Translations under genes and position numbers: made by a program | IMG/VR virus record: IMGVR_UViG_2541047689_000008 | DNA from: a virus | Taxonomy: Duplodnaviria; Heunggongvirae; Uroviricota; Caudoviricetes | Reading direction: 5' to 3' (one strand) | DNA length: 32,756 nt | The notes under the pieces: generated by a model | The model's input: only the letters and a program-made list of their open reading frames with translations | Told to the model about the DNA's origin: nothing | Database searches by the model: none | Shown: positions 21,177-24,577 of the stretch, piece after piece | How positions within the stretch are numbered: the first letter of the stretch is position 1 | Layout: each line of letters begins with the position of its first letter

Positions 21177-21299
21177 CAGAATCCTTCCGGATAATTAGCT
21201 CTCCCCTTTAAGGGACCATCCCTCTTATCCCTGCGCGCTACTTAAGTATTTTTGATTCTATTCCGGCACCGTCCAGAACTTCAAACGCGTTGAAAATAA

Positions 21300-21325
21300 A
21301 AACAAAAACCCGCCGAAGCGGGTTA
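21300..21325 (-). terminator. Rho-independent terminator downstream of hok
   Basis: CCCGC-TTCG-GCGGG hairpin followed by TTTTTGTTTTTATTTT on the - strand. Confidence 0.65.
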
Positions 21326-21392
21326 AGTGCGGGTGCGTTGAGGATGCCTGCCACATCAGAGGTGGCGAGGGATTTCTCCCTCGCCGGGTCTC

Positions 21393-21548
21393 TTACTCCT
21401 CAGGTTCGTAAGCTGTGAAGACAGCGACCTCCGTCTGGCCGGTTCGGATTCGTACCTCGCAGAGGTCTTTCCTCGTTACCAGTGCCGTCACTATGACGGT
21501 TAAACAGATGACGATCAGGGCGATTAACATCGCCTTTTGCTGCTTCAT
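21393..21548 (-). CDS. hokD: Hok-family type I toxin (HokD/RelF-like)
   Basis: MKQQKAMLIALIVICLTVIVTALVTRKDLCEVRIRTGQTEVAVFTAYEPEE, matches recalled HokD. AAGGAGAAG upstream. The in-frame upstream extension in the ORF track is rejected. Confidence 0.85.
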   Translation of the reverse strand: MKQQKAMLIALIVICLTVIVTALVTRKDLCEVRIRTGQTEVAVFTAYEPEE

Positions 21549-21759
21549 AGCCTGCTTCTCCTTGCCTTCCGGCACGTAAGAGGCTAACCTACATGTGTCT
21601 AGCATGAAATTGGCCTCAGATTAATGTTAAGCGTCTTGCAGGACGCGTAATGTTAACTGGGGCTTTTCTCTATCTGCCTTTGGTGTTCATGCCCGAGGCA
21701 GATAGCCTCAAGCACCCGCAGCCATTCTACTTAACTACCTTTACCTCGCCAATATGAAA

Positions 21760-21849
21760 TCAGTCAGAAAGGCGATCCATAAGAACAATAGCAAGACAAT
21801 AAATTGCCATTACAGCCGCAATAGCCAGCGCACACTTGAGAACCAGCAC
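21760..21849 (-). CDS. Candidate small hydrophobic membrane peptide (29 aa)
   Basis: AGGAGG, 5 nt spacer, GTG; MLVLKCALAIAAVMAIYCLAIVLMDRLSD (single predicted TM helix plus charged tail). Below the ORF-track size cutoff. Confidence 0.3.
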   Translation of the reverse strand: MLVLKCALAIAAVMAIYCLAIVLMDRLSD

Positions 21850-22051
21850 GACAACCTCCTGTATTGGACGTACACCAGTCCTGATAAATATGAGGCGGCC
21901 TCTTAAGTGATTCAATACAACTATTAGGTATAATTAGTCAGATTTTTTCTGTGGAAATGGGACATTACAACCTATCGCCACCAACAATTGAGACGCTAAT
22001 CGCCCCATCTCGTAACCTTATCCAAAACGAGGCCTAAATCATGGCAATTGA

Positions 22052-22273
22052 CTAACGTTTCTGAGTAGATAATGCCCTGAAGTAAGCGTTGCTAATCGAT
22101 TGATAAATCTCAATATCTTCAGAACCTGCAAGTTCGACATACTCACTCTCACATGTAGACGGTTGAGCAGTGTGTTGGACACTTCTCGTGTTCGAGTGGA
22201 TTGTTCCTATACTAACTTCTGTTAATATAGGTAGTTCCAACTGGTTTCTGTCGTTTTTTTTCATATAAATCAC
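22052..22273 (-). CDS. Hypothetical small protein translationally coupled to the deaminase gene
   Basis: 73 aa. GTG start overlaps the deaminase stop (GTGA); GAGG 5 nt upstream; an ATG lies 9 nt further in. Confidence 0.4.
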   Translation of the reverse strand: MIYMKKNDRNQLELPILTEVSIGTIHSNTRSVQHTAQPSTCESEYVELAGSEDIEIYQSISNAYFRALSTQKR

Positions 22274-23541
22274 TCAAGCCTCAACAAGTTAAGTTTATTA
22301 CTATCAACTTCAGCAATAACTACCTGTTCTAATTTAGGAATCGCTTTGAGACTAACGCTATCCACAGGCATAGCCGCACCCTCTGTCGCTAACTCTAGCA
22401 CCCCAGCTTTAGATTTTCGAGATCCAGATTCAAAAAGCTCAAGAAACCTAGTTGGAGCTACTCCATCAAATTGTATCAATTTCACTTTTTCATCAGTCTC
22501 GATTACTGATTCGGTCATCGCATCCGAATGAAGTTTAAGAGCTAAGCTTTTTCTATACGGCTCAATAAAATATACTTCAGAGATACCAGAAGCGATAATA
22601 TGCCTTGCGCAGGAATGACATGGATAGGTTGTTACAAATATTTTTCCGCCTAAAATTCTTTCTCCTGCCACACGAGATGCGCCAAGAATCGCGTGCATTT
22701 CTGCATGAACCGCTCTTGAAAACTCTATTAAATCTTTTAATCGTGAGTTTTTTATAATAGTTTGAATCGCCGCTTCTCTTTTTTTTACAGGGATTATTTT
22801 TTCCTGTACAAGGCTATCAATGACAACTTCAGCCAATATTCTCTTTTCCGCATCATTCGAGCAATTTCTATTTTGTAATGTATAACAACGATGATCAGGA
22901 TCAATAACTTTTAAGCGGATAGATTGTTTACCATAGAGACCACCACCATTACGAGGCACATCATTCCAACCGGTAGAAAGAAGTTCTCCAGATGAAGATG
23001 TTACTGCAGCACCAACTTGTCTTGATAGACATGCAGAATTACGAGCCGCTGAGGTGGCTGCATACATTGCATTTTCCTCTTCAGTCGGTGATATAACTGA
23101 ACTCCTAAAAATTAGCTTAAAGAAACGTTCCAGTTTAGATAGAATTTGGCCTTTAGCATCGGCATTTCCTGGCTCTGCCAACCCACTGTCAACCCGCAAA
23201 AAGTAATCACACTTCGGGAAAGTGTCTCTAACTGATTGCCCATGATCGAACTCTTCACCAGAATCAGTATTGATTAGTTCAGCAATATCTTCAACGCTTA
23301 GTCTATTAATTTTTGAAAGATTTTCACGCCTTGCCTCTAAAGGGGAAAATACACCTATAGAGAAAATCATTTTTCCATAGATTGATTTCAACAATCTCAA
23401 GCTCAGAAGAGTTTTTAACTGAGTCAATAATATGACAAATTTTTTGATTTTTAATCTTACTCGCTTCCCCTTTGCTGGATTCATTAACAATATCATCAAA
23501 TTCACCAAAGTTTTTTTTACGCTCGGCGCTAATTTTAGCAA
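22270..23541 (-). CDS. C-terminal portion of a frameshift-split gene: dCMP/cytidine-deaminase-fold domain
   Basis: Zinc-binding signature VHAEMHAILGA...(29 aa)...TTYPCHSCARHI (HAE...PCxxC), preceded by AARNSACLSRQVGAAV. The first 60 or so codons of this frame are Leu/Lys-rich AT-driven noise overlapping the upstream ORF. AT-rich. Confidence 0.7.
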   Translation of the reverse strand: MLKLAPSVKKTLVNLMILLMNPAKGKRVRLKIKKFVILLTQLKTLLSLRLLKSIYGKMIFSIGVFSPLEARRENLSKINRLSVEDIAELINTDSGEEFDHGQSVRDTFPKCDYFLRVDSGLAEPGNADAKGQILSKLERFFKLIFRSSVISPTEEENAMYAATSAARNSACLSRQVGAAVTSSSGELLSTGWNDVPRNGGGLYGKQSIRLKVIDPDHRCYTLQNRNCSNDAEKRILAEVVIDSLVQEKIIPVKKREAAIQTIIKNSRLKDLIEFSRAVHAEMHAILGASRVAGERILGGKIFVTTYPCHSCARHIIASGISEVYFIEPYRKSLALKLHSDAMTESVIETDEKVKLIQFDGVAPTRFLELFESGSRKSKAGVLELATEGAAMPVDSVSLKAIPKLEQVVIAEVDSNKLNLLRLE

Positions 23542-23908
23542 TAGCTAATTTTGCAAGAATATCACTACCATAAATTTCACGAAGTTTATCACCCACAGTT
23601 ATAAGTGACTTGAATTTCTTTAGATTAGTGCTTTCATCAATATTAATTGATGTATATTTTGAATTAATCCGGATTAGATCACTCAAGCGTATGTCGTATG
23701 TTTTATAGCCATATTTTTTAAGCGAGAATGATATCTGCTCAGCAGTCTCATGTAGCGGTGAACCAATTGGCCCACAAAGTGCGATTATAATCTCTGGAGT
23801 AACACTGTCTTTTATTTCTTGAGTTGCATTAATTGTTGACAGCTCGGCAACATCATCATTCCCAACAAGTTGAAACTCTTGACTTTTATCTAAGGCTGTG
23901 CCTTGCAT
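23324..23908 (-). CDS. N-terminal portion of the same split gene: nucleotide-kinase-like domain with degenerate P-loop
   Basis: PEIIIALCGPIGSPLHETAE resembles a Walker-A/NMP-kinase P-loop but lacks the GK[ST] lysine. Frame ends at TGA 23324 after running about 218 nt in parallel with the downstream frame. AGGATAAGGG upstream of ATG 23908. Confidence 0.65.
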   Translation of the reverse strand: MQGTALDKSQEFQLVGNDDVAELSTINATQEIKDSVTPEIIIALCGPIGSPLHETAEQISFSLKKYGYKTYDIRLSDLIRINSKYTSINIDESTNLKKFKSLITVGDKLREIYGSDILAKLAIAKISAERKKNFGEFDDIVNESSKGEASKIKNQKICHIIDSVKNSSELEIVEINLWKNDFLYRCIFPFRGKA

Positions 23909-24199
23909 GCCCTTATCCTAATTAATAGTATTTTTCCCTCTTTATAGCTAATTAAGATAAATGTTGCAAAGTAATATTGCACATGAAACTTGAGTTAGTA
24001 ATCCTTTTGACTAGATGGTTTGACCTGCGCCCTATAGATAAACACACTACGCTGTTAGCAACGTTCGCTTCTGGCACAAAGCAGGCACCACACTAGTTCT
24101 TCCCTGTACCATAAAAATGTCAATTCACATATGAACAAATGCTATTTAATCTAAAAATGTCTATAAATACCGTGTAATTCACTGATAAAATGCCAATAT

Positions 24200-24577
24200 T
24201 CACTGAATAACTTCACTCCTCCGGTACTCGCGACAGATTATGTTTAGGTGACTGTCGTAGCGACGTATTTCTCCGTCAGGTAATGACCAGATAAGGTCCG
24301 GATCAACCACAGCGGGTTTCTTCACCTTCGCCCTAGAGAGTTTTTTGCGGGCATTTTGCCAGTCCTTTCGTGCCTGTTGAGACGGGAATAACGCGTAGCC
24401 GGAGTTGTATACATAACAACTGGCAACCAGCTCTCTGGCAAGAATGCTCATCAGATATCTTGTCGCACCTGTCTTGGCTTCCAGTTGCCGTAACGTCTCA
24501 CGACCGCTCTGGCGCACGAGTTCCACCACCTGCCCTTTAATTTTTTCCCGCTCTTCTTGTGTAAAAACTTTTGCCAC
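24200..24577 (-). CDS. Hypothetical protein downstream of the replication initiator (P position)
   Basis: 125 aa basic ORF, 40 nt after the O-like gene. No family recognised. Confidence 0.45.
   Translation of the reverse strand: MAKVFTQEEREKIKGQVVELVRQSGRETLRQLEAKTGATRYLMSILARELVASCYVYNSGYALFPSQQARKDWQNARKKLSRAKVKKPAVVDPDLIWSLPDGEIRRYDSHLNIICREYRRSEVIQ

Follow-up and report, generated by a model that had tools for sequence, protein, structure and literature searches.

Does the small hok gene at position 21393 of this viral sequence stand by itself, as a toxin that some outside factor must silence, or does it belong to a locus that carries its own regulation? The original prediction, made from the letters of the window (the whole stretch of DNA analysed here, 32,756 nt), recognised a hok-type type I toxin resembling HokD/RelF, saw neither relB nor relE upstream of it, and described it as stand-alone and possibly unregulated, leaving undecided by eye whether a Sok-like antisense RNA or a mok-like frame was present. 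Here we arrive at a different answer: with a probability of roughly 0.93, the gene belongs to a hok/mok/sok type I TA module of the hokD/hokW subtype, complete in its parts and operating by the canonical scheme. The identity of the locus, with its folding steps and covariation, was established in silico; we infer its transcription, processing, toxicity and biological role from close relatives, and it was homology and folding that gave the putative TSSs, Sok 3' end and 3' processing. The hokD locus described here is an ordinary, already known element, and the main remaining alternative to reading it as an intact module concerns its physiology, not its identity.

The assignment of the toxin gene was upheld in full. 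The 51-aa CDS on the minus strand (21548..21393) is nucleotide-identical to K-12 hokD, and its protein is 100% identical to K-12 HokD and carries the same PGAP accession, WP_000813254.1. Membership in the Hok/Gef family is indicated by a match to Pfam PF01848 (HOK_GEF) with E = 3e-23 and 81.6 bits against a cutoff of 22. The NCBIfam Hok models scored HokD below their curated cutoffs (48.5 vs 73) and were set aside, family membership being judged by Pfam and protein identity. The strong SD that had been noticed from the letters is AAGGAGAAG, at 21563-21555. HokD has Tyr, not Cys, at the conserved C-terminal position, and the Tyr47 codon UAC is followed by G (21405-21408, minus strand), the hokD CDS thereby retaining the UACG context. 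In K-12, about 6% of the hokD mRNA is A-to-I edited at this site, changing Tyr to Cys (PMC12214031); such low editing may provide an extra layer limiting toxicity.

The surroundings of the gene are those of a lambdoid prophage. Searches with Rfam returned a DicF sRNA at 27950-28001 on the plus strand (72.5 bits) and two cspA-type thermoregulator leaders on the minus strand, at 17597-17989 (158.8 bits) and 14702-15087 (112.8 bits). DicF and the two leaders fit cspB/cspI-type cold-shock genes and fix the identity of the window as a Qin-like lambdoid prophage, with the hok module in its early-right region. Downstream of the module lie rem, ydfU and the gene for the Q antiterminator, which close relatives carry as ydfT.

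Upstream of hok, a promoter scan of the minus strand found a −35 hexamer TTGGCG (21752-21747) and a −10 hexamer TAGAAT (21729-21724) separated by a 17-nt spacer. Between this hok promoter (21724..21752) and the conserved 5' end GGGUGCUUGAGG there are 6 nt. The putative TSS is the G at 21717, which is also where the Rfam leader model starts, and by alignment the distance from the −10 to the start equals that of hokC and of R1-type hok. The conserved hok mRNA leader that follows (21543..21717, minus strand) matches the full length (1-157) of Rfam RF01794, 'sok', with 117.1 bits against a gathering threshold of 59 and E = 2.7e-26, the 3' end of the model overlying the hok AUG. Named 'sok antitoxin', RF01794 matches the hok-sense strand, from the 5' end of the hok mRNA to the hok AUG; because it lies on that strand, the match marks the hok leader, while the Sok RNA is on the opposite strand as the complement of its central part. 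Compared with the Rfam consensus, the hokD/hokW subtype has an insertion of about 16 nt in the second helix and a longer Sok stem-loop.

The mok-like frame whose presence had been left undecided was found in the ORF list. It is an ORF of 70 codons (21393..21605, minus strand) that contains the 51-aa hok and is in frame with it, and its SD, GAGG at 21617-21614, is situated 8 nt upstream of the mok AUG. As annotated, mokW in 933W and mokC in K-12 have the same layout.

At the other end of the gene, a terminator scan agreed with the dedicated intrinsic terminator that had been proposed for the toxin. The rho-independent terminator of the hok mRNA (21298..21324, minus strand) has a 7-bp stem with 5 G-C pairs followed by TTTGTTTTTA, the stem occupying 21324..21307 with the T run after it. 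It is common to the window and K-12 hokD and is absent from 933W. The homology to the hokW locus of 933W stops at 21321, directly past the element fbi, and the sequence downstream differs in 933W. Because the homology ends there and the terminator is that of K-12 hokD, a module boundary can be drawn just 3' of fbi. The range originally given for the locus, 21393-21760, omits the 3' part, since fbi and the terminator reach to about 21298. Between hok and fbi is a 3'-UTR stem-loop, GGCGAGGGA-GAAA-UCCCUCGCC (21364..21385, minus strand), which was present in all folds and which, from the role described in PMC9841398, would form a terminal hairpin once the mRNA has been processed.

Promoter and terminator together predict a full-length hok mRNA of about 418 nt (21298..21717, minus strand). 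Folding of this RNA and alignment of its leader to known hok/sok loci had both been suggested along with the original prediction; Sok, tac, ucb and fbi elements were all identified, and the fold gave an MFE of −176 kcal/mol (z = −7.54) that contained the tac–fbi pairing. With none of 100 shuffles equally stable (z = −7.5) and an Rfam leader match at E = 2.7e-26, chance would hardly produce such features. The tac element was recognised from the folds and from motif conservation as nt 1-12 of the mRNA, GGGUGCUUGAGG (21706..21717, minus strand). Three alternative partners are predicted for it: nt 19-29 while the RNA is nascent, fbi when the RNA is full-length, and ucb once the 3' end has been trimmed. 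The fbi element, CCUCAACGCACCC (21331..21343, minus strand), pairs with tac nt 1-12 in the MFE structure, and the resulting 12 bp (21717-21706 with 21343-21331) appear in both the MFE and centroid folds. The rest of the 5' hairpin (21659..21705, minus strand) forms the first RF01794 helix and includes the leader inverted repeat already seen by eye, which proved to be a 10-bp stem of 21705-21696 with 21679-21670. Within this hairpin the folds place the ucb/anti-SD box at nt 50-59 (21668-21659, minus strand).

Three conformations are predicted from these elements. In the closed form, given by the full-length fold, nt 55-59 (ucb 21663-21659) pair with the mok SD at 21617-21614. In the open form, given by RNAs of nt 1-360, 1-365 or 1-372, nt 53-59 pair instead with nt 1-7 to make the tac stem, again the first Rfam helix, and the mok SD pairs with dcb (21584-21580) in a hairpin around the mok AUG. 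In the nascent form (nt 1-30 or 1-45), a metastable hairpin of −18.8 kcal/mol is predicted to hold tac. The predicted folds are those of an RNA that would refold after 3' trimming and carry a metastable nascent hairpin, and the conformations correspond to those given for R1 hok/sok (PMC9841398).

The tac–fbi pairing is conserved well outside this prophage. Among 77 hok loci from other species, the tac motif lies 140-182 nt upstream of the hok ATG in most, with two outliers at 209 and 219 nt, and in most its complement is found 47-58 nt past the stop codon, with compensatory changes. The co-varying 5'/3' pairs are GGGUGC/GCACCC, GGCGC/GCGCC, GGGUGCCUGAGA/UCUCAUGGCACCC and GGGCGCC/GGCGCCC, and the tac–fbi covariation spans hokD, hokC, hokB and R1-type loci. 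Also, the 3'-UTR stem-loop differs from that of 933W by a compensatory change from A-U to G-C. That compensatory changes keep both tac–fbi and the 3' hairpin paired argues that selection still acts on the RNA.

The antisense RNA is encoded on the plus strand. Its promoter (21562..21590) was read from the sequence as a −35 TTGCCT (21562-21567) and a −10 TAACCT (21585-21590) with a 17-nt spacer. With consensus matches of 4/6 and 3/6 it scored too low for the generic σ70 scan, and its assignment relies on where it lies and on its identity to sokW and sokC, not on a consensus score; both hexamers are identical in 933W. The Sok RNA itself, about 71-76 nt long (21597..21670, plus strand), would begin 8 nt inside mok, as do the annotated sokW and sokC. 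It is predicted to consist of a single-stranded 5' tail of about 15 nt, a long stem-loop and a U-rich tail, with a fold of −30.3 kcal/mol (z = −4.5). The 5' tail is complementary to the mok AUG and the target loop, and the duplex between tail and target has a calculated energy of −22.4 kcal/mol. Taken together, these features describe a putative Sok encoded in cis that has a promoter of its own, a tail able to pair with the mok start and a terminator hairpin.

The matching target is a hairpin of the processed mRNA (21580..21617, minus strand), obtained by folding the 3'-trimmed RNA. Its stem is formed by the mok SD and dcb (21617-21613 with 21584-21580), it encloses the mok AUG, and its 7-nt loop is CUAGACA at 21602-21596. 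We take this loop to carry a YUNR motif. The hairpin agrees with the canonical description of the Sok target in PMC9841398. The ORF list, Rfam, the folds and homology to sokW and sokC thus agree that both the Sok-like RNA and the mok-like frame are present.

By analogy with R1 hok/sok and hokW–sokW, and, for the metastable hairpin, the tac–fbi closure and the refolding after trimming, from the folds predicted here, the module would operate as follows. A constitutive promoter would yield the hok mRNA of about 418 nt from near 21717, and in the nascent RNA the 5' tac would be kept in the metastable hairpin. In the finished RNA, tac would pair with fbi and ucb would cover the mok SD, permitting neither translation nor Sok binding. 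Slow exonucleolytic trimming from the 3' end would then remove fbi, allow tac to pair with ucb, free the mok SD and let the target hairpin form. For as long as the cell keeps and transcribes the prophage DNA, the 5' tail of the short-lived Sok would pair with the loop of the target hairpin, blocking mok and hence the coupled translation of hok and triggering decay by RNase III. When Sok falls, Mok and Hok would be translated and the 51-aa Hok would damage the inner membrane. The likely biological role, on the model of hokW–sokW, is stabilisation of the prophage, help with lysis on induction, or both.

The comparison with K-12 turns on what lies upstream of the toxin. From a point 14 nt before the ATG as far as the end of the terminator, Qin hokD (relF) of K-12 is the same as the gene in the window, CDS included, bar one 3'-UTR base. 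The genes downstream (rem, a hypothetical gene, ydfU and ydfT) are also those of the window. On the other side of the hok ATG, in contrast, these 14 nt (21562-21549) are the only part shared with the K-12 relE–hokD spacer. The space beyond window position 21562 is filled in K-12 by relE and its 3' flank, and K-12 hokD is without the hok promoter, tac, ucb, the mok start, the Sok RNA and the Sok −10. The window does not have the relBE-hokD (relBEF) arrangement of K-12 Qin. K-12 hokD is, to judge from these alignments, a 5'-truncated derivative in which relBE has replaced everything upstream of −14. Because the leader is common to the whole hok family, the form in the window must be ancestral and that of K-12 derived. 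The original prediction was correct in placing this toxin outside the relBE context and had the polarity reversed, the window holding the intact form and K-12 the 5'-truncated one.

Truncation fits what has been written of this strain. According to PMC7232551 and PMC12214031, each with reference to Pedersen & Gerdes 1999, K-12 hok loci have been inactivated by IS elements, point mutations or rearrangement; hokB is an exception, and intact hokD homologues occur in other strains (PMC7232551; PMC12214031). Counting as a full locus any match to 80% or more of its 551 nt, with the leader among them, we found it in 3271 of 5426 complete E. coli genomes, with up to 10 matching places per genome. E. 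coli GE3 and isolate 30821_1#335 match the window here with 100% identity. The K-12 relE–hokD junction was present in 1173 of the same 5426, and because 3271 genomes stand against 1173 the form in the window is the majority state.

These data bear directly on two other accounts of the gene. One holds that it is what remains of a relBE-hokD (relBEF) operon after deletion of relBE, an idea that draws on K-12 Qin, where hokD directly follows relE and the same rem and ydfU lie downstream. The proposal that the leader might align to the 3' end of relE was examined, and the 155 nt upstream of −14 had no similarity to relE or its 3' flank in an alignment to a K-12-type genome, and nothing derived from relE was found between 21563 and 21760; these 155 nt align instead to the leaders of hokW (933W), K-12 hokC and hokB and the R1-type plasmid hok, as well as to the Rfam model. 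The absence of relB and relE had been called correctly and extends to the whole window, in which tblastn and blastn found none of relB, relE, ydfV and flxA (best E > 2, nothing at E < 2), and the idea of a deleted relBE was rejected. With the relE–hokD junction also in the minority (1173 vs 3271 genomes), we regard such a remnant as highly improbable. We give equally little credence to the view that hok is solitary, without an antitoxin, and must be silenced by some external factor. PGAP, which in E. coli genomes marks the hokD CDS and neither sok nor mok, gives this impression. The solitary view is contradicted by the presence of the Sok promoter, the Sok RNA with its stem-loop and terminator, mok, and the tac, fbi, ucb and dcb elements; sokW and sokC, as annotated, are homologous. 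The description of the toxin as stand-alone and possibly unregulated accordingly found no support.

It is less easy to dismiss the view that the module is intact in sequence and physiologically inert: transcribed, silent, never killing, stabilising or aiding lysis, and carried as a neutral passenger of lambdoid prophages. Native chromosomal hokA, hokB and hokC gave no PSK or rifampicin-induced killing, according to a summary within bioRxiv 10.1101/2025.08.07.668861, and because of this an intact sequence is no proof of an active killer. The low Tyr-to-Cys editing of hokD (PMC12214031) can be read in the same direction, as can decay elsewhere in the prophage region, e.g. in the adjoining frameshifted dCTP deaminase gene. 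Against it, all regulatory elements are preserved, most of them identical to those of the functional hokW–sokW; the full locus is retained in 3271 of the 5426 genomes; compensatory changes have occurred in tac–fbi and in the 3' hairpin; and the HokD peptide is toxic upon expression (bioRxiv 10.1101/2025.08.07.668861). On balance we consider an inert module unlikely, although it deserves more weight than either of the two preceding accounts, and we retain the reading of a complete hok/mok/sok module.

The DNA upstream of the module has features of its own. Directly upstream, on the minus strand, is an anti-phage dCTP deaminase gene (22270-23908) that a 1-nt frameshift splits in two, leaving an N-terminal ORF of 194 aa and a deaminase ORF of 423 aa (PADLOC dCTPase 1.4e-30 and 1.2e-134). 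The gene is intact (1638 nt) in strain KK19-02, at 99.3% identity, and this cargo adjoins hokD in only 6 of the 5426 genomes. The slot between the DUF977 gene and hokD (~21990-24200; equivalents in loci L001, L002 and L086-L094) is variable, its cargo differing from one sampled genome to the next: dCTP deaminase, AIPR, DUF7380, DUF4209, SMEK with a SAM-methyltransferase, QueH, ead/Ea22-like small phage genes, or the relBE-ydfV-flxA of K-12. The hok–rem/DUF968–Q side is constant. The slot looks like a moron or defence hotspot of Qin-like prophages. Also within it is a 73-aa ORF (22052-22273, minus strand) that starts at the deaminase stop codon, more likely comprises 70 aa from an ATG (MKKNDRNQ...), and is not annotated in identical genomes.

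Between slot and promoter is a hydrophobic ORF of 29 codons (V/MLVLKCALAIAAVMAIYCLAIVLMDRLSD; 21849..21760, minus strand), with a GTG start and a strong AGGAGG SD at 21855-21860. Its stop codon comes 8 nt before the hok −35. Nine related sequences, drawn from E. coli, E. ruysiae and a phage, were compared, and in each the ORF was intact and accompanied the hok module; it is also present in 4 phage genomes. Only 8 of its 90 columns vary, whereas in the 124 nt that precede it 31 do, and the changes fall mostly at third codon positions. The 29-codon ORF and hok form a pair that is the fixed right-hand edge of the variable slot. PGAP does not annotate the ORF, which appears as 'hypothetical protein' in a few records; an exact look-up of the window's 29-aa peptide gave no match, and a one-residue variant was found only as 'hypothetical protein'. 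Pfam, NCBIfam and PADLOC returned no match for the 29-aa or 51-aa upstream ORFs, nor for the 73-aa ORF. The 29-codon ORF could encode a real membrane peptide, e.g. a second toxin-like peptide, or act by read-through modulation of the hok 5' end, and the hok/sok module could serve as an addiction anchor that stabilises the adjoining cargo slot. That the hokD module is no lone cassette, the 29-codon ORF being functionally tied to hok and hok/sok possibly acting as such an anchor, strikes us as doubtful, a conjecture that we put below even the inert module.

As a discovery the locus carries little weight, and its value lies in a corrected perspective on hokD. The textbook view derived from K-12, in which hokD/relF is the third gene after relBE, describes a truncated minority allele, and the usual form among E. 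coli prophages is an intact hokD that has a promoter, mok, Sok and fold-back elements of its own. Because standard annotation gives nothing but the CDS, the hokD locus resembles an orphan toxin; the lesson for annotation pipelines is that the Sok, mok and tac/fbi elements stay unlabelled. Furthermore, the locus is a possible natural allele for the roles of hok/sok in prophages, namely stabilisation, help with lysis as in hokW, and phage exclusion beside a slot for defence cargo.

The closest known system is hokW–mokW–sokW of the Stx2 phages 933W and Sp5/VT2-Sakai, with about 93-94% nucleotide identity from promoter to fbi (403 of 430 aligned nt identical between 933W and the window). The hok −10, tac, the mok SD and AUG, the Sok −35 and −10, the hok SD and fbi of 933W are all identical to those of the window; one base differs in the hok −35, at 21750, and two in the Sok-target loop. 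The mokW of 933W has 70 codons, like mok here, and the Sok stem-loop extended by about 16 nt is common to both. The HokW protein is 92% identical to HokD, differing at the C-terminus. Both loci have lambdoid prophage settings, at different places: hokW of 933W is near the left end, beside ead/Ea22-like genes, whereas the module in the window sits between the replication genes and rem/ydfU/Q. Experimentally, hokW–sokW is a functional type I TA system that needs both RNase III and Hfq, the sokW promoter is required for antitoxin activity, and the locus aids the release of Sp5 after mitomycin C (PMC8621323).

More distant relatives share the architecture to a lesser extent in sequence. The protein of K-12 hokC(gef)/mokC/sokC is 82% identical, its leader can be aligned throughout and the positions of mok and Sok are alike, but SokC is shorter (59 nt) than the Sok of the window because hokC is without the Sok stem-loop insertion, and an IS186 lies just downstream of hokC. 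The R1/IncFII hok/sok system (parB) has the same architecture and the same predicted conformations, including tac–fbi, the tac stem, the mok SD/dcb pairing and the metastable hairpin, although R1 Hok is only 41% identical to the HokD described here. The 5' end of the R1 mRNA is GGCGC where the window has GGGUGC, with fbi changed to match, and hok/sok of R1 is plasmid-borne, with a proven PSK function.
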